Source: Marsupella aquatica
Taxonomy: Eukaryota > Plantae > Marchantiophyta
Length of the DNA: 64,000 nucleotides
Direction: 5' to 3'
NCBI GenBank assembly: GCA_973895155.1
Contig: OZ316894.1
Coordinates: 619,968-683,967, forward strand
In this document: positions 3 to 49,626 of the stretch, piece by piece
Position numbering within the stretch: position 1 is the stretch's first letter
Layout: each line of letters opens with the position of its first letter
The notes under the pieces: model-generated
The model's database searches: none
Seen by the model: only the letters and a program-made list of their open reading frames with translations
What the model was told of the DNA's origin: nothing
Made by a program: the position numbers and the translations under genes

Positions 3-716
3 TTGGACCACCCGGAACTCTTCGTACAGGGTACGTTTCTGAACGGGCTTCTGGGAGATTTCTCTCATCAAATTGCCCGGGATACCGGGGAGTTCATGGC
101 TCGGAAGGTAGCCTGTTTCTTCAATCAGGAGTTGGTTGCCGCCGTAAAGGCAGGGCGGGCCCAGTCGGAGGCCCTTCAGAGGATAGAGCGGTACCGGGTG
201 GAGTCCGTGTACCTAAAGAACGAAGTGGCGGCTCAAGAGGCTGAGCTTCTGCAACTACGACCCAAGGTTGCAGCCGCCGATGAGTTGTTAGCAAAGGCGT
301 ACGCTCTTACCGCCCTAGCCGAACAGGCCAAAGCTGGGAACGAGGCCGAGATTACACGACTCCGGAACCAGATTGACAGTTTGAAGAAACAAGCTGTCAC
401 CTGGCAGAAAGACCTGGAGGAGGCCGAGGAGCGAGCCCAGCGGGACGCGACGGAGATAGCCACGCTGCAGGCCGAGATGGCGCGGCTCCAAACCGAGGCC
501 GAGAAGCAGGACCAGCTGGCGAGTAAACTGGCGAGCGACGCCCAGCAGCTGGAGGAGGCATGTCAGGAGGCAGCAGAGGAGACGGACGCGGCGAGGCGAG
601 AGAACGAATCTCTGCTGGACCAGGTCCAGCTCCTCAAAGCGGACAATGACAGGCTTCGAAGGCAGCGGGATGGCCGTTCCCATTCGGGCGGCTCTGGTAA
701 GCGTGCCAGGCATTAG
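3..716 (+). CDS. C-terminal part of family A coiled-coil protein
   Basis: Open frame rich in E/A/Q/L heptads, almost identical to the C-terminal 237 aa of ORF 50707..51906(-). Confidence 0.7.
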   Translation: MDHPELFVQGTFLNGLLGDFSHQIARDTGEFMARKVACFFNQELVAAVKAGRAQSEALQRIERYRVESVYLKNEVAAQEAELLQLRPKVAAADELLAKAYALTALAEQAKAGNEAEITRLRNQIDSLKKQAVTWQKDLEEAEERAQRDATEIATLQAEMARLQTEAEKQDQLASKLASDAQQLEEACQEAAEETDAARRENESLLDQVQLLKADNDRLRRQRDGRSHSGGSGKRARH

Positions 717-929
717 CGGCGGAGTAGGAATAGATTAGGATTAGGATTGGCTTAGTCAGGCTCTTGGGACAGGCACCTGCCTTAGGTACAGCAGCGCTGC
801 CCTGCTGTCCAGCCTGCGTAGATTAGGATCTTCTAATAAGACACAGCCGTTTTCCGGCCTGACTGTCAGCTTAGTTAGGACCTTAGTCAGCGAATCTTTG
901 GCGAGAGGGCACCCCGTTCCTCGGCTCTT

Positions 930-967
930 AGTATTTAGTGCACCCCTCGGTAGAGGCAAGGGGGGGG
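930..967 (+). promoter_or_regulatory. Putative LTR core promoter (TATA-like plus C-run/GGTAGAG/G-run) of family A
   Basis: AGTATTTAGTGCACCCCTCGGTAGAGGCAAGGGGGGGG aligns with AGTATATAGAGCAGCCCCCCGGTAGAGACGAGGGGGGGGGG at 3691-3731 in LTR C. Confidence 0.45.
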
Positions 968-2782
968 TTTTTAGTTTCAGAGTCGGACATCCGCGGGACA
1001 TGCGGGGAGTCCCGACCTCTGGGAATGACAGAGTACCAAGGGGAGGGGGTAGGACTAAGCTCGCCGGGCGAGTGCGGAGCCGGGCTCCGTTGTAGTGTGC
1101 ACCCTTGGCCTTGAACCTGTGCATTCCAGGGCTGTCGTGTCAACTAAGTGTACGCATATGTTCCCTTTGTAGTAAAATCCTTTCCCATCATTTTTCCTTC
1201 GTGTAAATCGAGATTGTATGCATGTGTGCGCATATGTGTGTGGGTTTCTCGTATATGGGTGCAGCGCTGGGCCGAACACACTACCCGAGACGGGCACAGG
1301 GTGCAGCCTGCGGGTAAGTGGTTGCGAGCACGGGTTGAGGACCTGTATCATCGAATCCGGATCGAAGGCGGACAGCACGAAGGCTTAGAAGCCCTTAAGC
1401 CGGGGTCGATCCTGCTATCGACTAAGGTACGTTCCGGCAGCGGAACACAAACCATACCTAGGAGGTGTCCGTATTTAGCAGTATGCGCACTTAGCGCTAG
1501 TTTACGAGAATAAGGTGCATTACGTGCTTCCCTTCCTGCCCGAACCCTCAGATTTACGAGGGATGTGCCCGTCTAAGCTGAAGTCTGAGTTAAGGCCGAA
1601 GCCTACGACGTGACAGTAGACCCAAAATTAGGAGAACATCGAATTGACCTCATGTTAGGGGCCAAATCATTTTGACAACCAATTCGAGGGATGAACCCTA
1701 AGTATTCCCTGATAGTCAAAACTGAAATCGACAAGCTAGTGGAAGCCGGATTCATCACTCCAGCCCTACACTTAGACTGGGTGTCTCCAATTGTGATAGT
1801 TCCCAAGAAAGCTGGTAAACCCAAGATCCGGGTTTGTCAGGATTACAAGAAGTTAAATGAGGCTACGTTAAAAGACCATTTTCCTTTACCCTTTACTGAT
1901 ATGGTGCTAGACATGGTAGCCAGTCATGAACTATACTCATTCATGGATGGGTACTCTGGTTATAACCAAATCAGGATTAGGCACGACGACCAAATCAAGA
2001 CGGCCTTCATCACGGAATGGGGGATCTATGTCTTCAATCGTATGCCGTTTGGACTCTGTAACGCACCAGCTATGTTCCAATGATTAATGGTGAACATTTT
2101 CCATGACTACTTGAGAAAGTTCATGGAAATCTTCATTGACGACTTTGTAGTATTTGGGAAGGCATTGAAACATGCTAAGTACCTAAGGAAGACCTTCATG
2201 AGATGCAGAAAGGTAGGTCTCAAGTTACACCCAGATAAATGTTTCTTTGGAGTAACAAAGGGGGTGCTGCTAGGTCACAAGGTATCTAAGAAGGGCATTG
2301 AGATTGACAAAGGTAAGCTAGCAGTATGGCTAGATATCATGCAACCTAAGAACATAAAGGATGTAAGATCCTTCTTGGGGTGCATTGGGTATTATCGTCG
2401 GTTCATCAAGGATTTTGTTGTGACGCCAATGACATGGTCCTTATTTTGTAATCTGATTAAGTAGGTTGCTGTATGCAAGGAGTAGCTATTGATATTGCAT
2501 AACAATTAGCAAGATGGCAAGAATAAGGGCAATCATGGCGTTAAGAGTAGGGAAATAAAAGCTATGTCGCGGGTGGTCGGCGACCACATCTCTTTCAATA
2601 TGTCACCAAATCCGGATCTGTAAAGAGCATTGGAAAGATCTGGTCAAGGCGAGTAAAATCGATATAAAACACTTGAGAAACGGAGGTGTATTAAGGAAGA
2701 TACGGCCCGATTAGTGTAACGGGTTAACTTGTGGCCGGAATTAGCAGATTCGGCTTCAGTTTCGGGTTAACCCAAGCTCGGC

Positions 2783-3131
2783 CACGGCTTAGCTTAGGTA
2801 AGCACGGCTTCAGCTTAGCTTAGGTAAGCACGGCTTCAGCTTAGCTCAGGTGAGAACGGCTTCAGCTTAGCTTAGGTAAGCACGGCTTCAGCTTAGCTTA
2901 GGTAAGCACGGCTTCAGCTTAGCTCAGGTGAGAACGGCTTCAGCTTAGCTTAGGTAAGCACGGCTTCAGCTTAGCTCAGGTGAGAACGGCTTCAGCTTAG
3001 CTCAGGTGAGAATGGTTTCAGCTTAGCTCAGGTGAGAACGGCTTCAGCTTAGCTCAGATGAGAACGGCTTCAGCTTAGCTCAGGTAAGCACGGCTTCAGC
3101 TTAGCTTAGGTCAGCACAGCTTCAGCTTAGG
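2783..3131. repeat. 26-bp tandem array (~13 units) in putative U3 of LTR C
   Basis: Units CACGGCTTCAGCTTAGCTTAGGTAAG and AACGGCTTCAGCTTAGCTCAGGTGAG are interspersed. Confidence 0.9.
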
Positions 3132-3690
3132 CTTAACCTAGGTTTGGATTAGATTGATCCCGGGTTAGACTTAACTCGGGTTAGCCTAAACCCTAAAACT
3201 TGGGCTCAGGTTAGCATAGGTAAGCTCGGATTCGGGCTCAGCTTAGGCTAGGTTAGCGGATAGCGGGTAGCGGCCTAACCCGAGACCACGGGTTAGCTCT
3301 ACTCAGGTTAGATAGGATGGCTAGGTTAGCCGAACTCGGGTTAGCTATGTAACTCGGGTTAGCGCAGCAGTGAGTACCCCCTCTCGGTTGCGGGGGCATA
3401 ACTCTCTATGTATTTGACCAAATCGGCTATAATTGACCTCGTTGGAAAGAGGAGCTCAAGCCGCTTCCAACGCTGCTATCCACGCAGCAAATGGTTGAAT
3501 AGAGAAATCGGGAGAGGAGGCACAAGCTCGCGAAAACCATGGAGGAGGGCCAAATCCGAAGTACATAGCCAATTCAAGATAGAAATAAAGTTGCGAGTTA
3601 GGGTTCAGTAGTTAGAGATAGTGGCGGCTCTGTTAGGGCTGGGATGGGGCTCCAACAGCGTAGTATCCACCCATTTGGGCTCAGTATGAG

Positions 3691-26500: not shown

Positions 26501-26854
26501 AGCCCCATTGAGCCACTCTTGTTTTCTAGACAAAACATCTAGTTTTAATTTCTTCCACACCCCTGAAGCATTTAGTTTACCAGCTTACTGATAACTACCC
26601 CTTCAACAAAGTATTTGATTACTTGGTTTGACAACATAAACTAAGTGAGTTTTGTGTTCAAGAATCATTTTCATTACAAGTAACTTTCAACTTAATTACA
26701 GAATATTCCATTGGTATCAAATTTAGGAATTGTATATCTAAGTTACTTAAGGTTGGGGTATCCAGCCCAACTCACGATTGGGATCATCTCAATCCAACCT
26801 TTCTTTGGTCAAACATTAAATTAGTGTGTAGAGGTTAACTGTCCGTACAAGGGT

Positions 26855-27760
26855 CATCCCTGTTAGCTGTTTGGATAGGGATCATCCTTATGTATTGTTT
26901 GGATAAGAATGATGTCTGTCCACCGTTTGGATAGAGATGATCCCTGTCCACCGTTTGGATGGGGATGATCCCTGTCCGGCTTTTGGATAAGAATGATGTC
27001 TATCCACCGTTTGGATGGGGATGATCCCTGTTCGGATTTTGGATAGGGATGATTCTTGTCCACCGTTTGGATAGGGATGATCCCTATCCACCCTTTGGAT
27101 GGGGATGATCCTTGTCCACCATTTGGATCCCTGTCCACCATTTGGATGAGGATGATCCCTGTCCACCGTTTGGATGGGGATGATCCCTGTCCGCCGTGAT
27201 CCCTGTCCACCGTTTGGATGGGGATGATCCATGTCCGCCATTTGGATAGGGATGATCCCTGTCTGCCATTTGGATAGGGATGATCCCTGTCCGCCGTTTG
27301 AGGTATTTGCTTTATGGGATCCCAATATGAAAGGTTTTACTTGATAGGACCGCTGAGTGATCCTAAGTGATCCGGACCTTGAATCATCCATGTCTATTGT
27401 TTGGACAGTGATAGACCCTGTCCGCCATTTGGACAGGGATCAGCTGTGTCTGCCCTTTGGACATTAACAGACACTATCCGCCGCTTAGGCAGGGATGATC
27501 CCTGTTTGCCGTTTGGACAGTGACAGACCCTATCCACCGTTCTGACAGGGATCATCTCTGTCCGGATTTTGGACAGGGATGATCCCTGTCTGCCGTTTAC
27601 AGGGATCATCTATGTCCACTGTTTGGACAGTGACAGAACCTATCTGCCGTCTGGACAGGGATCATCCCTATCCAAAGTCTGAATAGGGATCAGGGATCTT
27701 TGGGCTAGATAAGGATTGTTTAGGGACCTATTATTTTGCTTGATGGGGATGATCCCTATT
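26855..27760. repeat. 28-bp minisatellite with internally palindromic unit (two blocks)
   Basis: Consensus GATGATCCCTGTCCACCGTTTGGAYRGG with period 28 (e.g. 26936 to 26964). ATCCCTGTCC and GGAYAGGGAT arms are complementary. Confidence 0.88.
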
Positions 27761-30800: not shown

Positions 30801-31837
30801 TCAAGGCCGACCTGCGTGAGAAGGACAATATGCTCGATCAGACTTACGCCAAGATGAACCAGATGGAGTCTGTCATCATTGCAGAGCTCGACAAGGAGTT
30901 AAGAGCAACCCGGGAGGAGAGGGCTACCTTGAAGAAGGAATTGGAGGAAGCCCATAGGGAGCTGGAGGAAGCCCAGAAAGAACTGGAGGAGGCGCGCAAG
31001 GACCTGGACGAAGTACAGGAGGAGTTGGAGGAAAGCACGCGGAAGCTGGAGAACTTACAGCGGCGATCCGACAACCAAACGGAGCGGCTGAAGAAACAAG
31101 CCGCAGTATTTAAATGCTTGGCTTCATCAGGCCCAACTCCAATTGGGGCCACCAAGTTACCAGGAGTGGTACTGGCCGAAGAACAAGCCGCGCCACTTGC
31201 ACCAGTGCCGGAAGTAAGTGGGAAGGGGAAGGGACCAGCTGCCGAACCAGAAAAGAAGAAGAAGCGGAAACCTTCAGAGTCAAAGAGTAATACGGCTCCA
31301 CAAGCCGTGGTGACCAAGGAGGTAGACCCAGCACCGACCCCAGGCAGGGTCACGGCAGAGGATCCAACTACCCTAGAAGGAGGGGACGGTAAAGCCGATG
31401 CCAGGATACTCGGTAATGAAGCCGAGGTACCGAACCCGCCACTTGAGTGTGCAGGGGAGGCCGTAGCCGATGCTGAGGCCGTAGCCGATGCTGAGGCCGT
31501 AGCCGATGCTGAGGCCGTAGCCGATGCTGAGGCCGTAGCCGATGCTGAGGCCGTAGCCGATGCTGAGGCCGTAGCCGATGCTGAGGCCGTAGCCGATGCT
31601 GAGGCCGTAGCCGATGCTGAGGCCGTAGCCGATGCTGAGGCCGTAGCCGATGCCGAGGCAGAAGCCGATGCTGAGGCCGTAGCCGATGCCGAGGCAGAAG
31701 CCGATGGTGGACCCAGTCAGGCCGATGGAGAGTTGACTCAGTCAAGGGCAGGTAATCTGTCAGAGAACGAACCTACGGCAGTGGCTGAGGAGGAAGCGTT
31801 GGGGGCGTCCACTGGGGAACAGACACCGCTGCCATGA
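27893..31837 (+). CDS. Family B long ORF, near-intact (one stop at 28148; 1227 aa open downstream)
   Basis: ORFs 27887..28150 and 28154..31837 are in the same frame. Contains the plant-transposon-protein-like motif, a coiled coil and a KKKKRK basic NLS-like patch. Confidence 0.8.
31457..31708 (+). repeat. In-frame 18-bp tandem repeat x14 encoding EAVADA
   Basis: GAGGCCGTAGCCGATGCT units; the other B copies have only 1-3 degenerate units. Confidence 0.92.
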
Positions 31838-33738: not shown

Positions 33739-34294
33739 ATCATCAGTTATCAGTTTTGCCGCCTTGAAATTTCTGAATCTCAGCTGAGCAGCTGAGATAG
33801 GGCCTTCGCACTTTTGCGCATCTTAGCTGGGGCACCTGAGATTGACTCAATCTCAGCTGACCTTGCCGAGATTGGCCTAAGGACAAAAAAATGGGAAAAA
33901 ATTTAAATTTTTTTTTCAGAAATTCTCAAAAAAAAATTAAAATAAAAAATTTTCCGACAAAATTTGGTGTCCGTATTGTACGGACATCGGACTATCTCGG
34001 CGGGTCTCGCCGAGATGCAGTGTCCGTACGGTACGGACACCCATAGTGAAAAAAAAGGGGGGGAATTTGTTTTTTTGAGAAATTTTTTAAAAAAATTTTA
34101 ATTTTTAGTTTTTTTGTCCTTACGCCAATCTCGGCGAGGTCAGCTGAGATTGAGTCAATCTCAGCTGCCCCAGCTGAGATCCGCAAAAGTTCTTTTTTCG
34201 CATTTTTTTTCGGCGCCCCAACTTGGCGGCCTCTCTAAGATGACGTGGCGACTGATATCAGGTGGACTGATGGAAAACACTAATAACTGATGAT
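33739..34294. repeat. Nested fold-back palindrome (MITE-like, or terminal structure of the adjacent transposon)
   Basis: Outer IR ATCATCAGTTAT/ATAACTGATGAT; ~80-bp arms at 33810-33891 and 34110-34190; inner self-palindromic TGTCCGTA..TACGGACA pair and central ATCTCGGCG/CGCCGAGAT. Confidence 0.8.
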
Positions 34295-34437
34295 GTAGCT
34301 TTACTCTGGTGGAATCACAATACTTTCCCAATTTCCATAGGGGAGTAATTACTTTGGTTCGGTGGCGGATTGATTCAACAAAACTACTTGCAAACGGGAA
34401 ATTTTTGTCAGACATTTTGGTTGAAGGTTCAGAGAGG

Positions 34438-35853
34438 ATGGAGACGGTGGATAGGGATGATCTCTATCCAAATGTAAATGATAGGGGAATGCCGCGCACA
34501 AGGCCATACAATTTCAACAAGAGGACTCATGTAGATCCGATTGAAAAGAAGAGAAGGCTATTGGAAACCAAGGCAGTTTCAAAAACAACGGAAGCTTCAA
34601 TTGATGAAATTAAAAGAGAGAATTGTTGCAAGCAGAAATGTTGTCGGACTATGCCAAGAGAAGACATAGAAGATATCCAGATAGAATTTCACGGGATGTC
34701 TAGCGAGTCAAAAACATCACACATTTTCAACCTCTTCCACTACAGAGAAGATGATGTTCGTGATAAGGGGCACCATGTTCTCAAGGGTATGGTCGTATGT
34801 AGACATGCATTTGCAATCATCCATGGCTTTAGCCACACGAAATATTATGATTACAAAAGGAGATATGTGGAGGGTTGCAAAATTGGGTTCCATGGAAACA
34901 CGGGTTCCAAATACCTTGCATGCACGAGCTTTGTTGGAGGATTTTTTGACTCGAAATACAGAGCCCATGCCTCATATACCTCATGCTGGGGCTCATGGGA
35001 CAGACTCCATTGAGTATCGTCTTCTAGCATGTTACAAGAAGTTGGAGATTTTGGAAGATGTGAGAACAAAGATGAAGGAAGAGGGGCTTCCCCCAGTTAC
35101 AGAGAATACTCTGTACGAGATTTGGAGCAAATCATTCGTAAACTTCAATTTCCATAAAGATGGTGCATTTGCCAAGTGTACTCTTTGTTGTGAATACAAA
35201 GATAGTTTGATGCGAGAAAGAAGGAAAAAAGAACGTGCTGAAATTGAAGAAAAACGAGCACAACATCTTCGTGAGCAGATGTCACGTAGATATGTTTACT
35301 ATGCTCATTGAGTGATGGCTAAGCAACATCTAGGGGAATATCTTTGCATCATTCACGACAAGATGGATCAACCAAAGACGTGGATTCCAAAAATGGTCAG
35401 TACTCCTAAATCGCTTTCGGGTCATGGGATGCCACTACCTATTGCTCTCACAAGGATGTTGACCCACGGAAGGGATCCAGGAGTCTATGCACACTTTAGT
35501 GTCACTGGCCTTTGGCCAGGAGATGCTAATTTCATGGTGACATCCTTGGCTAAGTGTCTTCGAGACCTTGAAGAGTACAATGGAGAGAAGACAGATGACA
35601 TGTTGGATGGCCTTTATTTGGAACCTCATAGACCTTTCTTTCAAGCCCTTTTTTACTTTGATGCATTTTTTAAGGGATATTTGGAACCAAAGAGTATTCC
35701 AATGAATAGGTATATTGGTTCTGAAGATGCAACCGAGAGTCAAACGGAGACGGTCTCCATCCAACATGGTGAGGATCAAGGAGAGGACATGCATGGGGAA
35801 CAAGGCAGTCAATCTTTCAAGCCCTTGCCAAGGCACCTAACATTGCAAATGGA
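34438..35853 (+). pseudogene. 5' part of DUF7869-type (tentatively Sola-like) DNA transposase
   Basis: Motifs CCKQKC, VCRHAF, FAKCTLC, YLCIIHDKMDQPKT..P, THG and LPRHLTLQM. It breaks off where LQxDN is expected and contains a frameshift and a stop. Confidence 0.6.
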
Positions 35854-38800
35854 AGCTTCCAGCCCCAGCGGTCCAATCCATAAAAATATCACGAGGTTGG
35901 GTGACAAGCTCAATGACAGATTGCATAAACCCAACAGACAGGCGAGCATTTCCAGAAAACTCCATTTGCGGGAATGGATCGGATTTGAGAGAAGGGAGTC
36001 CGATCAAATTGGTGACCAAGGGGTCCTCACTGATGGAGAGTGGACGGAATTTAGGGTCTTTGGGAATTTTGCATTTCCCATTAATTCAACCAAATATGTC
36101 CAGCCTGAGGGTAAACATCTGCGGAAAGCAATCCCAAGTGTCAGTTGGCAACTCCAGGTTAAACAAGTTATATTTCAAAATGCGACATAGTTAAGAGTAC
36201 ATGATTACCTGACAGTCTGTCTTTGCCGCGTACATCGGGACAGACATTACAACATTATGCGTGCATATGCACTGAAATTTTCTCGATTCCTGACAGGCAG
36301 CAATGACTTGAGACATGGGATCATACTCCCCATTGTGTAAAATTGCAAGGAATCCATCATCTGATAGAAATGGATCCATGGACTTGAAAAAAGATCTAGC
36401 CATGGAGTGATCTGGAGTGTTCCATTTAGGAACCTTCTTATCTATGATCGTTGGTTTGAACCCGGTTGGTAGGTAAATGAAACCCGCATCCACTCCAAAC
36501 GATCTTTCTTTTCCTCCCCGCACAACACCCTTCTCTTTATATCCCGACTTAACGAGATCCTTCCCCCACTTCTCCACATTACTAACCCATTCAGGTTTTT
36601 CCCCCTTGTTGAAAGTCGAGTCAAAATTTTTGGATATGCTTGTCTCAACCATGGCATGACGAGACACTCTAGTTTTGAAGTTTCCAACTTCACGTTGGAC
36701 ACCAGATGCTGCAACACTCTCCCTTGAAGAAGGTCCACCTTCGATAGCTCTCTTTCGTTTCTTCCTGGTACTTGTGGCGTCAACCAGAACTATTACCTTC
36801 CCCTTGTCGACAGGAGTAATGGGGTCCGATCGAGCTCCGGTGTTTGCCTCAGAAACTTCAGGTGTAGCATCCACTTTAGTATCTCCTATTCCCGCAGTAT
36901 TAGACTTCCTCCCTCCTAAATTACCAATAAGTCCTAGTTAGAACAAGTAAATCCCGAGTATTCAAACAAGCTAGCGCCAGGCGCTAACCAAATGCAAATC
37001 ACTTAGGTTACAACAAAGGCCTAAGAATGTAGAAAGAAATGTGAATTCGCATGATAGTTCAAGCCAGCGCCAGGCGCTGGCCATACTAGGGAACACTATA
37101 CTCACTTTTCCTCCCAGATTTTGTTGACTCGCTTGGTGCTGCTAACTTCACTTTTGCTTTCGCTCGAGGTTTGCGACTTCGGTCCACATGAACAATAGTC
37201 GTTTCACAGATACTTTGCAAGTCAGTGGCAGACTTGTCTACATCATCTAGCAGGCCCTGCTTCATGTCGGACACAATTTTTGCTGGTATGTGGGACTTTG
37301 AAAGCTTATGGAATGCATCTTTCTCCCTTTGATCAAAAGGAGAATCCCATCTATCTGTATCTAGATACCAGGGGCAGTGAGTTCTCTCCCATTCTGTCGT
37401 AGGTCTTGGAGGAAATATGCCCTCCGCTGGGTACATGGAGTACAAATCAGCTATGGCGTCATCCTCACTTATTGTAATCCACTTCATGAAAGCTGCAGGA
37501 TATGCCCAGAAGTAATCAGGTTTGGTTACCTCCATGTGCATGTAGAACCTGTAAAGATACCTTTTAGCCCGCTTCTGGTTTTTCTGGGTATAGTCTTCTT
37601 TGTCTGGATACTTTGAAGGCCACATAGTGTGAAAGAACTTACTCTTCACAGAATCACCATATCTCTTGAATTCATTTGTAACAAACTGAACGAGATCATC
37701 AAACGAACCACAATTCCACTCTTCCAATCTAGTGGCGGGCATAGTTTGCTCTACTTCACGCAGACATGAATGTAACATGTTGATAACAATTCCCTCTACA
37801 CTATTCCAAGTGATCCAAGTATGACACCATTGTTTGACTGGGTCGTCGTTAACACTTGCCGGGTGGAAAAACTGTCTCCGTAGCTCAGGATTGCAATGTG
37901 CCACAAGTAGGATGCTCTGCAACTTTGGGTCTAGGGCAGAAACAGCACTGAACAATCGGGCGCGGTCCATTGTACATACGACGGCGTCAGGCTTCTTCTC
38001 TCTCTTGTTTCTCTCTGTGACAGCATACATTTCTGCACATGTACTAAGAAAATCTTCAAATTCAGGACTTAACAAGGGCGTAATTTTTGATGACTTCAAT
38101 GCCCAGTCTTTGGTTGCGTCCTTCATCATGGCCGCATGGCGTTTGGAAATCTTGTCCACCGACCAGGGACTCCCTTGAGCCTCGACTGCCTCCATGTCAA
38201 GCTTGAATTGGTGAGAATAGGACTTTATCTTATTCTCACATAGAATGTAAACAAGAGCTTCCTGTGGCATCTTCTTTGTATACCATGACCCCTTCCGAGT
38301 CTTTAGCCGAATGCTCTCAAACTTCTTGAAATTAGCCGGGTCAATCAGTTTACTGTAATACTCAAGGTCATGCGCCAGAATTTGTTTGATTCTATCTGCA
38401 TCGAGAATCTAGGATGGCTCAACAACTGCTTGGCCAAGCCTACACGAAGAGATGCAACGAGTTAGAGTCAAAGTACAATTTATCTATAACCAGCGCCGAG
38501 CGCTCTTAAATAGAACACTCGCAAGATTCAAAGAAGGTACCGGAAAAGAATGAGAACTTACTGATTCACGGTGTGCATAGCTGCCTCAATTTCAATAAGA
38601 GATCCCTTGTCTCCCTTAAATATTGTGCAGAGCACTCAAGGATGGTATTTTGGATTGTCAGGGTTCTCCTCGGTAACAAGCGTCCATGAGTACAGCCTGT
38701 GATTTCCATCGAAGACAGAGAAAATCTTATCCTTCAACACGAGAAAATCTGGATCGGCCTCGCATTCAGCCTCAAACTTCTCGTTCTCCAATTGCCAAAT

Positions 38801-39313
38801 TGGATCCCATGACTCACGAATTTCCTGGGTACAGGTTAGAACAATTCCATTCTCATCCGTTGGCTGCACATAGAAACGCATTCCTATGGATGAATTGTAA
38901 CCCATACTGCGAAACGAGTCTTTCAGCTTCTCGATGGAAGAGCTATCTTTCTGCAAAGTACGAACCACCTCCATATGAACCAATCGGCATAGAGGGATTT
39001 GAGGCGGCTCCTTGTCAAATCCACGAGAATCCTTTCCAAAACACATGACATGTTTTGAGATGAGATCAGTCTCTGCGAGTGCGCAGTCCGAAACATCTTG
39101 GATCGCAATCGTGTCGAGGTTCTCCATCTTTCTACGCAGAGATTTAGGAACCAAAACAACGCTAACAGAAGTAGGAGACAACAACTTTGTGGAACGAGTT
39201 ACACGACGTGTATAAACTGAACCAGTAAACGAAGACTGCGAGGATTCAGAATAAGCTCGCTCTTGGTCAAGAACAACACTATACCCTCTGGATGAAGAGG
39301 AGAATACCTCCAT
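35851..39313 (-). pseudogene. Four-exon ParB/Srx-like plus N4/N6 DNA methyltransferase-like fusion gene (3'-truncated, 3 premature stops)
   Basis: Exons 39313-38562, 38439-37106, 36933-36209 and 36118-35851 join in frame through GT-AG introns. ParB-like motifs IPLCRL..VVR..KLKDSF..GY..VFDGNHRL; MTase-like motifs VDAGFIYLPTG, FLSDDGFLAI and VIELVTQPRDIFMDWTAGAGS. Confidence 0.7.
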
Positions 39314-40276
39314 CGTCTTCCTTCCAGAAGCGTACGAACTATCGTACAATGAAATTATGGAACTCTAATCAACTCTCAATGTGTAATATATTCTAGAAGG
39401 AGGGTGGAGTTCAGCGGAACTCTTCAATTAAAGCGAGAAGCTCGTAAGTTTGGCGGATTCCAACGTATGTATGCTGAGAACTTAATTAGCTAAATCAAGC
39501 GGTAGAAGAAGCGTAACACACACGGAACTCAGAAGTTACCGTTAAATGTTACCGTTATGACCGTTTTCCTCCCTCACTCGGAATACTAGTGCCGGGCGCT
39601 ATTATAAACAACTTCCCTTGAAGTAGATAATTTGGATGATTGTCATGGCAGCGCCCGGCACTAGTAAAAACAACAGCTATAGAATAGGTCTTAAATGGTG
39701 CCTCAAATACATAAATTTCATCAAAACAACCCTATATTTAAAGAAATGTCTATTGTTTTAATGGTTTTTGGGAAACATTACTTGCATCCTATACTAGCGC
39801 CCGACGCTAGTGATAACGAGTATTTTTCATCCATAGTTTTAAAAGAATTCAAATTTTCATTGATCATTTCAATCCAATTATTTCATAGTATTGATGGATA
39901 TCTGGAGGGTTTTTTGTATACTAGCGCCAGGCGCTAGTATGGAATATCGAGATTTGGGGCATATTATGTTGGAGACATTTTAGTTAGCGCCAGGCGCTAC
40001 TCAAATTGTTCCAACTATACAATATCTTAGAGTTTGTTAAAGATTTTTGTGGTGTCTTTTTTGGCATTATGTATGCGTCTGACATCCGGACTTATCGGGG
40101 AAAAACGACAAAAATCATTTATGTCGCCAACGGATCCTATGTCGACTATGTTTGATGTCTTATACAAACGGATCTGTTAACGTGAAGTTCCCATGTTCGA
40201 CTGATATAAGCTCCATATTACCATAGACTTTTCTTCCTCAAAACATTACAGCCCTCGTTATTTGTTTTCGATTGCA

Positions 40277-43200
40277 ATGTCTCGGTCCATCGTTCTATCC
40301 CGATTCGGGACTGGAGATATTGTGAGCATCCCCGTCCCTGTGGAAGACACGTACAAGCAGGTCCGGGAGAGATACCTTTGCGGGAGATTTGATTTGAGGA
40401 TGAATGATATTGAGGCCATTGTTCGAGAGCTCAAAACCAGTGATGACATCGAAGATGCAGCAACATTCAATGTGGATGATGGTGAACGGTTTTGGCATCT
40501 ATACGCGGGGATTTTGTACTCACTTCGAGTAAGACAACATGAAGGACCGTCCAGTGTCCCCCAAGTTCCATTTGATGTTGTCAAGATTTCTTCTAGTGAA
40601 GATGGGGATCACACTCCAAGTCCTACGTTGAAAATGAAAGTCCCGCAACATGCTGTCGTTAAAGGTGAGACTCCAGGAAGCTCTAACCAGTTGGAGGTCA
40701 TGTATTGGCGGAGTGCAATGGATACGTTACTCAAATCCACTGGTCATAGCGAGTTATCAAGGTTCATATCAACGGGTGATTTCAGACATGAGCAAGTCTC
40801 CTGTCTGCCAACTAAGTACAACGGGAACGTTGTGTTTGAATTGCCACCCATTGACAAGATGCTCTCTAAAGGCTCTAGGCTTAGGGACATGGACTGTGCC
40901 AAAGATTGCTACATTTGGACACGCATATTTCCAACTACCGCGAACGTTCAGCCAAAAAAACTTTGGCAATTCGGTAAGGTTACCTGTACGAGATTCATTG
41001 AATGTCGGAACAAGTCCTACGAGTACTTCCAAAGGAAGAAGAAGGCAAATGCTAAGGCATGGCAGGGTACTCCAAAGCTTAGTGGTCAGTATGCTGTCGG
41101 ATCTTTTATCGAAGAGGGCGGTGTTGTGTGTCATTATTGTGATCAGATTCCTTTTTGTGTCAAGTACTGCCCTGCCCGTTTGTTCTATATGTACCCACAA
41201 GTATTACTTGATGCGGAAACATGTAGTCATATGTCCCGCCTGGTGATTCATATAGGTGAGCATAACCATCCAAGTAGAAAAACCTTCTGTAGGAGTGCGG
41301 AGAAGATGGCTGAGGATTTAATTAAAAAAAATCATGAAGCCAATCCTCTGGCAAAACCAGCTGGGATCTTGAATTCTGCTACAGAGTCCATAGTGAAAGC
41401 TCTTTGCGAACATGTTGACGACATGGTCGATATCGAAGAAACTGAAATATGGAAGTCTCTGATGGTACTTTCCACTCCCCAGAAGTTTGCATCTCTTTGT
41501 CGGAGCGTTAGGATAGACCAAAAGGGTCGGGGTGAACTTGATTTTCTCTTGCAAATGCAAAAGAAGATTAACCTGTCGTTTCTCTAGAGGTATTTGCTCC
41601 CGGGTCAGGGATGTCAAGACGATAGGCCTCACACCTTTAAAATGACTAGGAAGGGTCACGGTTCCGGTGTGGATCTTTTGAGACAGATGCAACCTGGTGG
41701 AAGACTCGAAGGAGCCTTGGTCAGTTTTGATGTGATGCAGCGTATCACAACCGATTGGTTTACTTTTAGCGCGCATGTCTACAACCATAACTTCCGTGCA
41801 CTTTGTACAATTTTCACATGCGAGTTGAAAGGTGAAGACACTGAGTCTTTCGAAAAGGCTTGGAGAGTTATGATTGAGGTTTGCAAGGAGAATGGATTAC
41901 AGGAGGTTGTCATCCAAGGGTTTATGGCGGACAATGCACAAGCTGGATGGAATGCTGTGCGGAATGTTTTTTTTGGTGGACACCCAGACCCGGAGAGGGA
42001 GCGCTCTGATGCATTTCACTTTTATCAATCTTTCCATCGGCATTCCAAGGAAGGAGTACTCAAAGAATGTCAATCGGAACATCGGAGACTTTGGGAGAAA
42101 CTAAGAAATGCTCCAACATTTGTGGTAGCGTATCGCGTGTCCCGAGAGATTGTGGTTTGGTGGCAATCAGGAAACTGTGTCCCTGGAAAGCTCATGATGC
42201 TACAAAGCTGGATATCCTGGTGGGTTGTTTGATGGTGCCAGTGGGGCAATTTTATTCGAGTGGTATGATATCCATCTCCTCTCTTGTCTTTCATTTCCAT
42301 CAACTTTATATTAGCGCCAGGCGTTGGTATGATTTGCTCGTATTTGAGTCCAGCATGTCCATAAAGTTCTAGAATCATAATCTAAATTGTATTTCACGTA
42401 TGTTATAAATACTTGTCGGAGCCAGCGCCGGGCGCTGGTAATACAATGCTAGTACTGATTATTGCATTCGGACTATGGCAGAGCAAAAGCGCAGAAGAAG
42501 GTGCCTTGATTCCAAACTGTACAGGGTCAGAATCAAGGCATGCGTCTATGAAAGCCTGGCTACAAAGAAAAAAGTTGGTCTTTTTGAAGCATGCAAAGTG
42601 GACCAAAACCGAGCCCTGTCTCAAGTTGCGAGATACAGTGCATATCAAAAAGGGTTGAACAGAGGAAAGGGACCGACTATATGGGAATTAGCGTTCCGTT
42701 CCGCCGATCAAGCAGGTTTGCCGAGGTTATTTGAAGATGCAACCAACATGCTTCTTTCCAACGCGGCGGACTTTGATTTGGAAAGAAGTACTCCCCTTAA
42801 CGGAGATATCGTGACCAAGTCAATGAAGAGAAAGGGACATGCAACTGGGACTGTCTCTCCACAAGACTCCCATCAGCATGACACCGTTCTCATAACCACA
42901 CCAAATACTCGTGGTTTGAAAAGGAAAAACCTAAACAGAACTGACTTTGCCTCCATTCCCTCAAATTCTAATGATCCTGTGACAAGAGTGGTGAATCTAG
43001 GATGGACCATCGAGCGGATCCTCCTTACTGAAGGGACGGGAGGCAGAATTTTGGCGTTTTTTACAAGTGCGATTGGATCTTATTGATGTCTATAACCTGG
43101 GCTGCACAGTGATAGGATCAAGATACACGTGGAGACGTGTCCGGCATGCAAACCTCACCCAGTCTAGACTGGACAGGTTTTACCTTAGTGGTCTTGGAGG

Positions 43201-46200
43201 TTGGATTGCTGGCACAGTGGAGCTAACTCATGATGGGGGCTCGTCACTGTCGGACCATGATCCCATTGTGGCTGTTTTGCGCTTTCAGATTGAGGAGAGG
43301 GATTCGGAAAGAGGTAAGTCCCACTTTTTTAAAGCTAACCCTTACGTACTCCGGGATCCGAAGAATATTGAGCAATTGGAGGCTGCCTGGCGGGCGGGGG
43401 GGGGTGGGCGAGGTGAACCCTCACTTGCGTTTCTCTCGTGCATGTCTGAGACTACGAAAAAAATATATGGAGTTGCAATCCGCACCGAGACAGTCTGAGG
43501 AGGAGTTGAACTTTCTGAGAGATAAAGTGAGAATACTTAAGACTACTATTGTAGATGAATGCTCACTGGATGAACTGACAGAGTTTCTGCAATGGGAGGA
43601 CATGCTTCACGTAGCTGAAGTTGAGACGGCGCACCAGGCCAGACGGTTAGCCAGAATTCGGTGGCTGGGAGAAGGGGAGGAATCAACTAAATTTTACTTT
43701 GCCACAGTCAAGGCTAAAAGAGAGAGAGAAGCTATGAGGATGCTAGTAAAGGAGGATGGATCGGTACTTACAGATTTCAAGGACATCATTGGGGAAGTAG
43801 AGCAGCAATGTGAGGCGCTTTACTCTCCTGGGCAACCATCTGAGGAGGAGCTACTAGAAAGCAGGTGCAATAGGGATAAGCTATTGCGGAGTACTAAATC
43901 GGCATTCACGGCGGCGGAGATACACAGGATGGAGGCACTTCCTACGATCTCCGAGGTGAAAGAGGTGTTGTGGCTTCTCCCGGAGGACAAGGCCCCTGGG
44001 ACGGATGGGCTCACGGCTGAGGTTTACAGAGCCTGTTGGGAGTTCATGAAGGATGATATGGTGGCAATGATACAGGATTTCTGGCTCACAGGCGAGTTGG
44101 CTGCTGAGATCAAGGATGGCCTGATAAAGCTGATACCAAAAAAACCTGATAAAAGATACTTGAAGGACTGGCGCCCTCTGACGATGCTTAACACTAGCTA
44201 CAAAATCCTGGCCAAAGTGATCGCTCTACGAATTAAGCACCTGCTATGTAACCTGATCAGTCCTCAGCAGACCGGGTTTATCCCGGGTAGACATATCTTA
44301 GAGAATATTTCGCTTGCTTGGCTTACAAGTGACTGGGTTCAGAATTGCAGGAAGGGAGCATTATTCCTAAAACTTGACTTTGAGAAAGCATTCAACAGGG
44401 TTAACCACGAGTATCTCTGGGAGTCTATGTTGCTGCTGGGATTTAGTGGTAGGATTGTGAACATAGTTAAAGCCTTGTTCTCTAATGCCAGCTCTCGAGT
44501 ACTAGTCAATGGCTTTCTTAGCAAATATTTTTTGATGTGTCGGGGGGTGAGGCAGGGATGTCCTCTCTCCCCTCTTCTATTTGTGATTTCTACCCAACCT
44601 CTCATGGATTTCTTGGATGCTGAGCTTGCGGCTGGTCGACTTGCTGGTATCCAGGTTTCAGATGTGCTTACAGTGTGCTACAGATTGTTTGCTGATGATG
44701 TGGGGATGTTCATCCCTGCAACAGAGGAAGCGTTTAGGGATGCTACTACGGCTCTGTCATGTTATGAAAGTGCATCTGGTGCTAGGCTGAACTTACGAAA
44801 ATCTGTTATCATCCCACTTGCTTTGGACCTAATTCCAGACTGGCTCAAGGCTACAGGCTGCAAGATTAGTGAGCAAGGTGAAGTGCAGAAGTATCTGGGT
44901 GCTCCATTTGGTATTGGACTCTCAGTGGGTAATTTACATCGCTTCTGCCTGGATAAGGTTGCGGCACGCTTGTCCTCTTGGTCAAATAAATTGTTGTCCT
45001 TCACAGGTCGAACGTTGCTGGTGAAACATGTGCTCATGGCAATACCGATATATCACGTAATATATATGAAGGCCTCGGAAGGGCTGGCAAAGAAACTGAT
45101 TGCGCTGTGCAGGGATTTTCTATGGGGTTATAATCTTGAGGGCGGGAAGAAGATTCCGCTGGTGGCATGGGACAAGATGGCTCGCCCTAAGGTGGATGGC
45201 GGACTGGGGTTTCGTGACTTTAGAAGTCACTCTGATGCGCTACTTACTCAGTGGTTTATGAAGGCCTTGGATTATCCCAACACGGAATGGGCTGGCATGC
45301 TTGCTGGTAATCTGAGTCTTATTGGATGGCTGAATTTCAGGGTGATTAGGCGAAATCACTACACATTTGCAGATAAGCTGCTTTTATGTACTCCAAGATC
45401 TTGCTGCGGGCTGACATACACTTGGGGAATCTGGAAGGCCTGGGAGGCTTTGAGAGCAAATCTTTCCTTTGTCCCAGGGATTGCGGGCTTTCCTGGGAGA
45501 TGGAGTATACAGGACGCATTACGCTGTACACAGGGCTTTAATACTTGGCCTTCGGCACACATAGAGTTCACTGTGGAAATCTGTGGGAGGCTTGGGATAC
45601 GGGTGATTGCCGACTGCTGGAATGCTGAGGCGCACCAATGGAAGGACTTTTCTGGTAGATGGTATTTGCTTCGAGGGTGGGCGCTGGCTCACAGGGACAG
45701 ATGCCATCAGTTTCTACTTGTGATTGGCAGGGGACGCTGCTGCAATGGTGGGCTGGTGTCAGGTGCTCGTTGTTGGCGTTGGCTTGAGATGGGGGTTCCA
45801 CTGAAGAGGTTCACAATTCCTAACAAACACGCGTACCAACTTCTAAGACCTAAGGGCTTGGACTACCAAAGATGGAACAGAATTTGGCTCACCAACTGGA
45901 CGGGGAGGTATGGGGTAAGAGATGGCATGCTCTATGGGGTTCGGACCTGTCCACTAGAGGAAAAACCTTTCTATGGCGAATCATTGTCGGTGGCCTGTTT
46001 ACGGGAGCAAGGGCCCTTACTATTGGTGCAAGTGATGGTATCTGTCGGCTATGCCCTGGGAGGCTTGAAAGTATTCCTCATCTGTTCGTCCAATGTGTGC
46101 ATGCTGCTGAGTGCTGGAGACTATGCTATGACTGCTGCCTGGGAGTTATGTTTGCACCTGGGCAGGATCTTCTAGACAAGGTGGTGGCCTCATTTGGTCG

Positions 46201-47840
46201 CAGTCCATTGAGGGTGGCTCGTCTATTCCTACTGTTTCAAATTGTGTGGATGATTTGGCTGGGACGTAACACACAGATGTTCAAGGAACTTGGGCGCAGA
46301 TCCTTTGATGTAAGATTGGTTCTTTCTGAGACGGTTTCGCACCTGCATGGGGCCTCTCTACGCTTCCCGTCAGGCAGTAAACACATTCGGCTTCTTAGGG
46401 CTAAAGAATTAATTGAAATGGAACGGAGGCGCTGGTTGGTGCGTAGAGATGGACATGTGACTTCGGGCTGATGATGCTTAGAGTAGGTTAGGCTCTTTGA
46501 TTGGTGCTGTGGCTCTGGTGGGCTTGGGTTGGGCTCACCTGTGCGGCTCTGTTTTTTGCTTTTGGGGCTTACCCTTGTGTTATGGCTACAGGCCTTTAGG
46601 TTGCTCATGGATCTGGCTCTTGCTGTCGTTGACTGGCTGGCTGGGGTTGGGCTCTTTACCGGGGCCGTATATGATGTCTGGGCGTGCCCTGTTTTAGGGG
46701 TGCCCTGCTGGCCTCCTGCGGGAGTTGTCCTTTTGTGTTGTTTGCTTCCCCCGCCGTGGGGTTTTCACGGGTTATTTCTATAAAAGTTAGAAAAAATTTC
46801 CAAGGAAGAGTGGTGAATCTCTCTGGTATGGACACATCAGATGGTGATACTGATTCACTGGACAATACCCCTCAAACAACCCGTACAACAAGATCCACAA
46901 AACCTCCGCTCAGTGCACTAGCCTCACTTCAGAATCCACTTTCACGCACAATTGTGCTCGAGAAGGATGTCCCTCTGGGGCAGTGGCAGCTGCGACGGAC
47001 GTCCAAGTATGGAGCAGGTCCCCAGTGTAATGGGACACTCAATGGGAGTTCTGATCACGATGAGTGTCGAAATTGTATCAAGAAGGTTGGCTTCCATTTG
47101 TCTAACGGTGTTGTTGGAATTGCCGTGAAGGGCCATCGTCTCTTCAGGGGCGAACCGATCTCCAAAATGATTTGGTTCTGCCCAAACCAAACCTGTTATA
47201 AGAGTTGTCCGCGTCGTGGTGTTCATCAGCTTCCTCCTCTTCCTGAAATTTTGCCTGTTCTGAAGGGTACGAACCTATCTCCTTCTGAAATCACGTTCCT
47301 CGAAGAGCAAGGACTTGTCTTGGCCCGAACAACAGGATCGAGTCGATCTGCGCCATCTTTGTTTGACCTCAAGATAAATGTGAACGTGTTCCCAGAAACA
47401 ATAAGGTTTTTGGAGCCAAATGTCCGGCTGGGTAGTCGGAATGGGAGGAACTCAAGACCTCGGTCTAATCTCACTGTGGGTCACACTAAGCGAATGGAGT
47501 TTGCACGACAAGAAGAGATGAGTTTGGATGGGGAATGGAATGTTCGGACTGGAAATGCTTTTGGAAAGCAATTTCGAGTTCGAACCCATGAGAACCTTCG
47601 ATCACCAAGCACGTACTTCGTGCAAATCTGTATCTTCCCTGCTTGCTCGTACATGCCTTGTACGAGCACATGTCGTACATGTACGAGCACAAGTCGTACA
47701 TGCCTTGTAAACATCTATACTGGGTGTACATAAATGTTTTCAAACTTGAGGTTGAGGAGTCGACTCTTTGTAGCCAACCAATTTTGACTGTGGGCGAAGT
47801 CAGGCTTGTCTTGGAGAGGCAGAACTTGAATGGTTTATAA
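40277..47840 (+). pseudogene. GCM-like/MULE-type DDE transposase with C-terminal SWIM finger, split by a LINE
   Basis: Cys/His N-terminal domain ending HIGEHNHP; motifs SFDVMQR, GFMADNAQAGWNAV..DAFHFYQS, SESRHAS and GKGP; SWIM-like YFVQICIFPACS..PCKHLYWV. Likely intron at ~42264-42481; stops and frameshifts present. Confidence 0.7.
42999..46805 (+). mobile_element. 5'-truncated L1-like LINE (EN C-terminus, RT, zf-RVT)
   Basis: 15-bp TSD AAGAGTGGTGAATCT at 42984-42998 and 46806-46820. Motifs SRLDRFY, SDHDP, KAPGTDG, LDFEKAF, QGCPLSP, FADD and CRLC..HLF..C. Confidence 0.93.
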
Positions 47841-48531
47841 TAGGGGCCAAAACTTCCGCATAGGTCGTTCAATATAACGGATAGTCACTATTTTGTCTTT
47901 ACCCAACGGATATGTTACTTGTTTTATTCAGTATTTTTTTATTAGCGCCGGGCGCTGCTTTTATTATGTACGCGTGTAGTGTAAGCATTACACTATGTTT
48001 TATTTAAAATGTGTAAGTTGATATCATTTTGTTTTATCTTTCAAGCCACGTTTATTCAATTATTCTGAAATAAATCGTTAGGAGGTGTTTTGTCATTTGT
48101 TTGTCACGGTACTTGGTCCATTTAAGTGAACTCATTTTGATTGAGTTCATTTGGACACTACTCTTCACTTGTTCTGTGGTGGGTCCCACCCTAAGGTTCA
48201 CTTTTTAGCTTGGACGAATAGTGATATTTGAATGAATGTTTCATTGAGTATAGTCCTCATACCGTGTTCAGTTATCTTCCAGATCAAAATGTTGTTGCGA
48301 GGGAGGACTGCTAGTACTCTTCATCCATCGGATGGCACACAATAATTGTTTGTTTTAAACCTAATTCACTTCAGAAAAATTTTGTGATTAGCGTAGTTTT
48401 TCATTCGGACCAAAGGGCTATGGTTGATGCAAAACTGGTAACAGGGAATCGCTTACTGGTAACAGTTATATTTGATTGTTAACAACAAAAAATTTCCTGG
48501 TAACAGGTTTTCTGTTTTCTATTTTCTGTCA

Positions 48532-49626
48532 TGGCTATCATACCCCAGATTGATACAAGAAATTGCATCTTACAAAGAATATCTTCAAACTTTCAAAGTT
48601 AAAGATATTCAAGGTCACTCAAAACCCGTATCATTTCTTTTCTCTATGAGAGATAATGTACCAATATTTCAGTATATGTCCCATGTAAAGCAAGCTTGGG
48701 CTCCAGTTGGAGGAAGGTGCATTTGGGCAACAGATCCGACAACAAATTCTCTTCTTTTACCTAGTGGAGAGCCCTTAGCTAAATCCATTGGAGAGATACA
48801 CAAAAAATCTGAAGAGATTATCCCATTTCTTAACAAGTACCTTGATTTTTTGAGAAGGAGTTGCACTGATGAGACATCTATAGCATATAAGGAAAGATTT
48901 CCTCTTGTGAAATATTGGGAGAGAATTGTGGAGTTGTTGACAAATGGGCTCGCACTAGAAGGGGAGGGAAGTACTCAATTTCCCTTGAAAAATGGATTTT
49001 GGCCTAAGACTAACCACGGCACTGGTTACAAGGTCAACCAACCGGAACAAAGTGGTCCTCCAAGTGAAGATGAGGAGAATGCGGAGATGACGGCTCTTCA
49101 AAATGAGGTCTTGGAAGAGATGGAAGATCAAGCAGCACCATTTGTTGGATCTCGAGCTGAGAGAGAACAAGGACGGTGGATTCCCCTACAGGATATTTGT
49201 GAAGGGAACTTTGTATTTCTTCGACCCGAGGATGACTGGGAGAATAAAAATGGTGGAGGTCATTTTTGGTTGGTGAGAGCTTTGGGTTCGGTGGACCCTA
49301 AGCATGAAGTCCCAACTACATCTCCAACAAACCCTCCTCTGCCTCAACAATATGCTCCAATGTTTCCAGTTGAATGGTGGAGGCCTAAACACTCGAAACT
49401 TGATGTGACTAAGAGTGCACGGTATCTAAACTGCTTCATGTCCACTAAGACATGGGAACAAGATCCAGGGGTTAGTGAGAACGCTCAACATTGGCAATAT
49501 GCAAATTCTGCAATGTATGGTTTTAAATCTGGAATGAAAGAAGAAAACATGGCGGGTAGAGGTTTGAAGATTCCTCGAAATGCTCTACAAACTGTCCAAA
49601 GTTATCTTCAAAGGATGGACAAGTAG
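48532..49626 (+). pseudogene. 3' part of the DUF7869-type transposase
   Basis: PRLIQEIASYK..IQGHSKPVSFLF..PIFQY..WAP resembles the C-terminal region of this family; same strand as 34438-35853. Confidence 0.5.

Follow-up and report, generated by a model that had tools for sequence, protein, structure and literature searches.

What is a long, symmetrical DNA motif doing eleven times over in the introns and spacers of a single plant transposon? The question is raised by a 64-kb stretch of the genome of the liverwort Marsupella aquatica (contig OZ316894.1; hereafter the window), a piece of repeat-rich eukaryotic DNA with long terminal repeat (LTR) and long interspersed nuclear element (LINE) pieces. 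Within it lies a decayed two-gene DNA transposon, likely of Mutator type to judge from its sequence, which is laid out as an accessory gene on the minus strand and a divergent transposase gene on the plus strand. The palindromes had been pointed out in a first-pass annotation made from the letters of the window, which took them for the binding sites of a dimeric protein. The palindrome is a real, family-specific, selected site, and the copies in this element are read here, by analogy and with somewhat more confidence than doubt, as parS-like loading sites for the ParB-like protein encoded by the accessory gene, which would serve to keep the element active or to tune its divergent promoters.

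Eleven palindromes in non-coding DNA

Scanning the 64-kb window for the pattern AGCGCCNGGCGCT, i.e. AGCGCC-N-GGCGCT, yielded 11 sites, six of them exact and five with one mismatch, which together span 36973 to 47956, with no match in the remaining ~55 kb (Table 1). When the window was shuffled 100 times, a mean of 0.09 sites and at most 2 were obtained, and when the non-coding parts were simulated by themselves, in 20,000 Markov runs, the mean was 0.003 and the maximum 1; all eleven palindromes listed by the first-pass annotation were recovered, far above both backgrounds. A weight matrix built from the 22 half-sites scored the 11 sites at 22.6-34.6 bits, against 4.2 bits for the next-best position in the window.

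The annotation had also confined the palindromes to introns and intergenic DNA, and this placement was borne out. All 11 fall within ~2.2 kb of non-coding DNA and none within ~6.6 kb of exons (p ~2e-7, computed with intron ends up to 5 bases off the final ones): two in intron 2 and one in intron 1 of the accessory gene, five in the divergent intergenic region, two in the transposase intron, and one in the 3' flank of the transposase gene.

Architecture of the site

Alignment of the half-sites revealed an invariant purine at position -9 (22 of 22), together with an A or T at -11 and a pyrimidine at -7, each with a single exception (21 of 22), and the full site is a ~19-bp sequence, RNY-AGCGCC-N-GGCGCT-RNY. 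The core spacing is constant at 1 bp, none of the 66 core pairs carries a two-sided change, and all five core mismatches are one-sided C>T substitutions, two at CG and three at CHG. The CCNGG core described in the first-pass annotation is kept in 10 of the 11 sites and lost in the one at 38492. The C and G beside the spacer are complementary in 10 of 11 sites, though they would be unable to pair in a hairpin, and no lone AGCGCC half-site was found in the element outside the LINE.

The two extended palindromes quoted in the annotation are exact in the window. The accompanying proposal, that symmetry is upheld copy by copy, was not supported, as the similarity between left and right flanks within a copy does not significantly exceed that of shuffled left/right pairs (p 0.06-0.5), and the longer symmetry is therefore mostly explained by the longer consensus. 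The outer flanks of different sites share 9-22 of 50 bases in the best orientation (nearly all pairs 10-22), and because these flanks are unrelated between copies, the sites are not tandem duplicates.

The fixed spacing, the lack of two-sided core changes and of lone half-sites, the unrelated flanks, and the palindromes at matching intron positions in diverged subfamilies described below all favour the dimeric protein site that had been proposed. To judge from the letters alone, the spacer, the core, and the complementarity beside the spacer look like the mark of a twofold-symmetric protein reading double-stranded DNA.

Decay in this copy and persistence across the family

In the window copy, five of 80 methylatable (CG/CHG) core cytosines have become T. 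This compares with five stops out of the 58 exon codons that read as stop, CGA, or CAG (p 0.74); the exon stop rate lies at ~5-9%, since one of the five stops counted is a TGG change according to relatives and one is of unassigned origin. The claim that the CpGs resist decay is not supported in this copy; as the core decays at the neutral exon rate, the persistence of the CpGs reflects youth, the copy being young and dead. Decay at the neutral rate, which the first-pass annotation had named as an argument against maintained sites, is what this dead copy displays, but is compatible with selection in the active lineage. The sites of the dead copy would now decay by methyl-cytosine deamination.

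The wider family was surveyed with contigs from four of six listed sequencing runs, aligned to 35750-43060 and ending at 43060. Across that region, 533-3,465 contigs per run were found at 80-100% likeness, the family being therefore high in copy number, with subfamilies. The following comparisons concern the 15 of 39 joints, the 12 between-letter rows, and the 40 of 2,145 substitutions that were listed. Nine of these rows keep the palindrome where the adjacent intron or spacer sequence ceases to align at 80%. In run X3, 92 bases in the middle of the transposase intron fail to align, yet the sites on either side persist (joint 42328/42421, with a 92-letter side); three contigs of runs X1 and X6 carry a different intron sequence, yet have a palindrome within 1 base of site 9; and in one X3 contig, the two intron-2 sites lie 57 bases apart instead of 93. 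None of the 40 substitutions listed falls in a core.

With the sites masked, the observed/expected CpG ratio reaches 1.18 in intron 1 and 1.01 between the genes, and exon 1 stands at 0.90; exons 2-4 have only 0.49-0.65, and the neighbouring elements 0.27-0.52. The raised CpG near the site cluster fits low methylation there in the active lineage.

The accessory gene and its ParB-like protein

The accessory gene consists of four exons separated by GT-AG introns, with the reading frame preserved; introns were called from splice signals, reading frame, relatives, and one intron-less subfamily. For exon 2, a search of 1.84 billion representatives turned up 105 relatives, and for exon 1, 21 of 61 candidates proved to be related, the named ones in liverworts belonging to Riccia sorocarpa and Calypogeia fissa (~36-42% identity). 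These relatives, taken with the decay at CG and CHG, are in keeping with a land-plant and likely bryophyte origin of the DNA. A Riccia protein of 1,207 residues, P0110, carries the complete accessory architecture and is 36% identical to exon 1 over the corresponding region; exons 3-4 are 21% identical to the Riccia relative (E 8e-6). One Riccia gene model fuses a piece of the transposase with a piece of the accessory protein, hinting, at the level of sequence, at the same two-gene linkage in Riccia.

The front of P0110 resembles the Atlas clusters DUF3723 (0.96) and ParB_N (0.92). A structural model of its Riccia cluster mate, P0032, was obtained from 110 sequences, with predicted local distance difference test (pLDDT) values mostly above 90 over residues ~160-720. 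In Foldseek comparisons of this model, 11 of the 11 top rows are ParB or Noc (E 0.1-0.9), with 7BNR as the best structural match, and among viral rows a ParB-like protein comes first (E 0.006). Using VIA, ParB/Srx-fold proteins fill the top seven rows, KorB-CTP being the first of them (Z 7.6, root-mean-square deviation (rmsd) 2.8, 95 residues), and the alignments to 5k5d and Spo0J (1vz0) reach residues 330-538 at an rmsd of 4-5. Each of these scores is modest, and it is their agreement that counts as evidence for a ParB/Srx fold at the front of the modelled protein. A DGNHR motif is invariant in 22 of 22 sequences, its likeness to GERRxR having been judged by eye only. The ParB-like domain lies at 38564-39130, where its best Atlas look-alikes are fungal DUF3723 and unnamed cnidarian clusters. 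Fungal DUF3723 proteins are known as Starship cargo. No literature was found that treats DUF3723 together with ParB.

At the opposite end of the protein, the tail of the relatives scores 23.7-26.2 bits against PF01555, with a cut-off of 26.7 (E 9e-6 to 5e-5), and that of one relative resembles Atlas N6_N4_Mtase clusters (0.95). The domain order is PF01555-like, with motif IV ahead of motif I. The catalytic motif of beta-class N4C/N6A DNA methyltransferases is (D/N/S)PP(Y/F/W); the corresponding residues are YLPT in the window, DLPT in P0070, P0110, and P0111, and SVGT in P0055, the aromatic residue missing from all five. The ParB and methyltransferase-like labels of the first-pass annotation are upheld via the Riccia relative. 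Neither gene of the window has an above-cut-off match in Pfam, PHROGs, or NCBIfam, sequence searches of solved structures returned nothing relevant for the proteins of the element, a single-sequence fold of exon 2 was unusable (pLDDT 38.5), and no long relative of the methyltransferase part was present among 4,016 candidates. No ParA-like match was seen among the 35 open reading frames (ORFs) of the window, where the left end of the element is deleted.

A search for related loci gave one distant 2.2-kb contig without the site in metagenomes, and none among viral contigs or prokaryote genomes. A two-site pattern in viral contigs, at two loci of 66-74% GC and in one case inside a long phage reading frame, was treated as chance.

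The proposed role and its alternatives

As parS-like sites, the palindromes would be bound by a dimer of the accessory ParB-like protein, which would close as a nucleotide-gated clamp and then spread along the element in the manner of ParB and KorB. In effect, the element would be shielded from CG/CHG silencing much as by VANC, or its two divergent promoters would be regulated. Lacking the catalytic aromatic residue, the methyltransferase-like domain would grip DNA, not write N4-methylcytosine (4mC) at CCNGG. A site of 19 bp does not fit into coding sequence, hence the confinement to introns and spacers. The fullest form of the idea, in which land-plant Mutator-like transposons run a ParB/parS clamp whose dimer loads at intronic palindromes and slides, while the methyltransferase fold shields the element from CG/CHG methylation, is drawn by analogy and is put forward tentatively, as something we would rather doubt than expect.

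The best-surviving rival, itself unlikely, holds that the sites are bound by the N-terminal Cys/His finger of the transposase, for autoregulation or for the organisation of the transposition complex. Of the sites, two fall within the intron of the transposase gene and one in the 3' flank of that gene; the relatives P0001 and P0002 have kept the finger region; and the AtMu1 transposase binds motifs and activates cognate copies (bioRxiv 2026.08.24.746577). The AtMu1 peaks, however, are at terminal repeats, whereas the present sites are internal and densest between the genes, with none in 47957-48500, and the ParB-like gene would be left without a target.

It is less probable again that the palindromes act as short hairpins in pre-mRNA or single-stranded DNA, affecting splicing or recruiting a protein. 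Six of the seven folded sites form a hairpin, and at the six intron and 3' sites the transition-type asymmetries within 12 nt of the centre comprise 12 G·U against 0 A·C on the sense strand (7 against 0 within 9 nt; p 0.002-0.03 against composition, in a post hoc comparison), the five intergenic sites being split 5:5. Exon lesions display no strong strand bias (four C>T and three G>A unambiguous), and this 12:0 bias with no exon counterpart is the reason why an RNA-hairpin role stays alive. On the other hand, five sites are intergenic, the 66 core pairs lack two-sided changes, the spacer-flanking bases are conserved as complements yet would sit in the loop, and the folding z-scores are modest, with one of seven below -2.

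We regard it as quite improbable that the element hoards the binding site of a host transcription or chromatin factor. Transposons do amplify host binding sites, and the sites cluster in the divergent promoter region and in introns, but a 19-bp palindrome is long for a plant factor, and the ~55 kb without a match contains many other elements.

More improbable still is the suggestion, adapted from a likeness to MvaI and BcnI targets drawn in the first-pass annotation, that the CCNGG core is the 4mC target of the methyltransferase of the element. The core kept in ten sites and the closeness of the C-terminal domain of the relative to PF01555, just under the cut-off, and to the N6_N4_Mtase clusters would agree with it. 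Outside the sites, however, CCNGG occurs at chance (17 against 17.5 expected in exons, 1 against 1.7 in non-coding DNA), a 5-bp target needs no 19-bp context, and motif IV is degenerate in all three of its forms; unenriched, and with the catalytic aromatic residue missing, the proposed link is left unsupported. Finally, an origin of the sites as neutral remnants of tandem duplications, tiny mobile palindromes, or footprints is largely refuted, for in spite of the neutral-rate decay in the window copy they share no flanks, have no target duplications, are absent from the rest of the window, and are retained at matching positions across diverged copies.

Several points also weigh against the parS-like reading itself. 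The fold matches are individually weak, no Foldseek match in the PDB having an E below 0.1 and the best Z being under 8, and they come from the model of a Riccia relative, in which a helix-turn-helix was not resolved and found no separate match in the fold comparisons. The window exons match no Pfam family, the only library hint being DGQHR (E 0.027). Several of the family joints rest on 20-21-letter sides, side lengths are absent for the between-letter rows, and the surveyed runs may include the source of the window. High CpG near promoters often has other causes and is common there, and a site that acts purely as DNA would not lead one to expect the 12:0 G·U bias of the transcribed sites. 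Moreover, the transposase of a Mutator-like element (MULE) can by itself bind and activate its own elements, as described in the same AtMu1 report (bioRxiv 2026.08.24.746577).

Relation to known systems

In the Sola1-1_Ec32 element of Ectocarpus, a gene for a 1,104-residue ParB plus N4/N6 methyltransferase protein lies opposite the transposase (PMC12477816). The present locus has the same arrangement, a DNA transposon in which a gene with ParB-like and amino-methyltransferase parts stands opposite that of the transposase, the likeness being one of description. The present carrier differs in being likely of Mutator type, in belonging to a land plant, and in having a degenerate catalytic motif; in addition, a specific ~19-bp site is resolved here, whereas the string 'palindrom' does not occur in the main text of PMC12477816. 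The algal ParB-methylase gene rides on Sola elements, and Sola-like gene halves flank the element in the window.

Inverted-repeat arrays have been described beside the ParB-like PAG3 in the Plavaka elements of Bostrychia, whose PAG2/PAG3 also occur on Mutator elements of Chondrus (bioRxiv 2025.02.11.637652). Common to both cases are a ParB-like protein beside inverted repeats and the same best structural match, 7BNR. In Plavaka, however, the partner fused to ParB is a 2-oxoglutarate (2OG) oxygenase, a separate gene encodes the methylase, and tandem arrays of the repeats stand beside PAG3, in contrast to the single sites with unrelated flanks that are spread here across the introns of both genes.

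The VANC motifs of Arabidopsis VANDAL elements lie in introns and spacers (PMC5735166), and a Mutator-type element, an accessory protein, and a family-specific motif limited to introns, spacers, and flanks are features held in common. VANC motifs are 8-9 bp long, non-palindromic, and spread by tandem repeats, as opposed to ~19 bp, palindromic, and without tandem context; the protein here is ParB-like, and its anti-silencing role is proposed by analogy. ParB at parS and KorB at OB sites, for their part, bind and then slide as clamps (PMC11790492). The shared features are the ParB/Srx fold, more than one palindromic site in cis, possibly long-range gene control, and a motif that, by eye, resembles GxxR, and the 11 sites in cis match the parS feature of several copies of a palindrome on the 13-16-bp scale. 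The differences are a eukaryotic transposon with no ParA-like gene seen, ~10% identity, long helical insertions, and a methyltransferase-like tail. By analogy, the accessory system may work like VANDAL/VANC or parS/ParB.

Two 2025 papers propose that ParB-bearing accessory proteins bind and modify their own transposons (PMC12477816; bioRxiv 2025.02.11.637652), and in one of them VANDAL is called the sole proven example of a transposon that behaves in this way. Algal transposons have already been described as carriers of ParB-methyltransferase accessory genes; what is new here is a land-plant Mutator-like carrier together with a base-resolved candidate site. The element is not described in the portions drawn on of PMC4738411, PMC6446971, and bioRxiv 2021.02.12.428880 (Marchantia 4mC), and no report of such a system in land plants was found in a literature search that excluded subscription papers, Iyer 2011, and the supplements of the algal papers.

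The carrier transposon and its surroundings

Table 1. Coordinates of the transposon, its genes and palindromes, and the inserted LINE, as positions in the window.
Feature	Position	Strand	Description
Decayed two-gene DNA transposon	35854..47956		Left end deleted at 35853/35854; right end between 47957 and ~48500
Accessory exon 4	35854..36118	-	Cut off inside methyltransferase motif I; one premature stop
Accessory intron 3	36119..36208	-	90 nt, no palindrome, absent in one subfamily
Accessory exon 3	36209..36933	-	Linker and first half of amino-methyltransferase-like domain; YLPT at motif IV position
Accessory exon 2	37106..38439	-	Large helical domain; one premature stop
Accessory exon 1	38562..39313	-	ParB/Srx-fold domain, DGNHR motif; one premature stop
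Transposase exon 1	40277..42262	+	Cys/His finger, two acidic motifs, DxxH; two premature stops
Transposase intron	42263..42481	+	Predicted GT-AG, two palindromes; relative P0001 stops aligning at the same point
Transposase exon 2	42482..47836	+	Third acidic motif just after intron, SWIM-like end; frameshifts; split by LINE
LINE insertion	42999..46820	+	Pfam RVT_1 and zf-RVT; 15-bp target duplication; no palindromes
Palindrome 1	36973..36985		Exact; accessory gene intron 2
Palindrome 2	37066..37078		Exact, perfect over 19 bp; accessory gene intron 2
Palindrome 3	38492..38504		One C>T, CHG context; CCNGG lost; accessory gene intron 1
Palindrome 4	39588..39600		One C>T at CG; divergent intergenic region
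Palindrome 5	39650..39662		One C>T at CG; intergenic
Palindrome 6	39796..39808		One C>T, CHG context; intergenic
Palindrome 7	39923..39935		Exact, perfect over 23 bp; intergenic
Palindrome 8	39986..39998		Exact; intergenic
Palindrome 9	42313..42325		One C>T, CHG context; transposase intron
Palindrome 10	42424..42436		Exact, perfect over 17 bp; transposase intron
Palindrome 11	47944..47956		Exact; 3' flank of transposase gene

The plus-strand gene is presumably that of a Mutator-type transposase, a label that was read by eye against known motifs (DDE, (C/D)xxH, and a SWIM finger) and that found no Pfam, NCBIfam, or PDB match. Its motifs, including the finger region, are conserved in the relatives P0001 and P0002. 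A short internal duplication at 47625-47705 scrambles the SWIM-like end. Mutator-like elements have terminal repeats and an 8-11-bp target duplication (PMC6446971).

The copy in the window has lost its left end and has five premature stops and frameshifts. The boundary at 35853/35854 is a deletion joint, as other copies show different continuations of both the flanking element and the accessory gene. The LINE is missing from other copies, an empty site being present in three contigs of run X3, and its insertion into transposase exon 2 is a later event. Intron 3 of the accessory gene is cleanly missing in one subfamily (joint 36120/36215, in three of four runs) and matches a 30-residue gap in the alignment to the Riccia protein; its presence or absence is a case of intron gain or loss within one transposon family.

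Halves of a DUF7869/Sola-like transposase gene flank the element at 34294-35853 and 48530-49626, with the intervening part missing. This missing middle is consistent with a single deletion that also removed the left end of the element. The flanking element was recognised by a library match of E 0.05-0.16, and the flanks contain no palindrome.

Elsewhere in the window, a foldback of ~380 bp at 33810-34190 has 82-nt inverted arms (94%) and internal short palindromes, and resembles a miniature inverted-repeat transposable element (MITE) or a subterminal structure of the flanking element. The stretch from 7845 to 32400 holds five or more ~7-kb repeats that are related to one another and run in both orientations. 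Their long coiled-coil ORFs belong to no Pfam family, and one repeat has at its end an 18-bp coding tandem array (31385-31762). Units of 26 bp and 28 bp make up further tandem arrays at 2696-3182 and 26841-27760.

Significance

The locus defines a candidate site precisely, in a family that is high in copy number and has annotated relatives among liverworts, and turns the 2025 proposal of self-binding into a simple binding and methylome test. If the clamp reading were true, a working ParB sliding clamp would exist in the eukaryotic nucleus, together with a second, independent anti-silencing system beside VANC. A transposon would then be able to address its whole length from a few short sites, which may offer a programmable tool against silencing.

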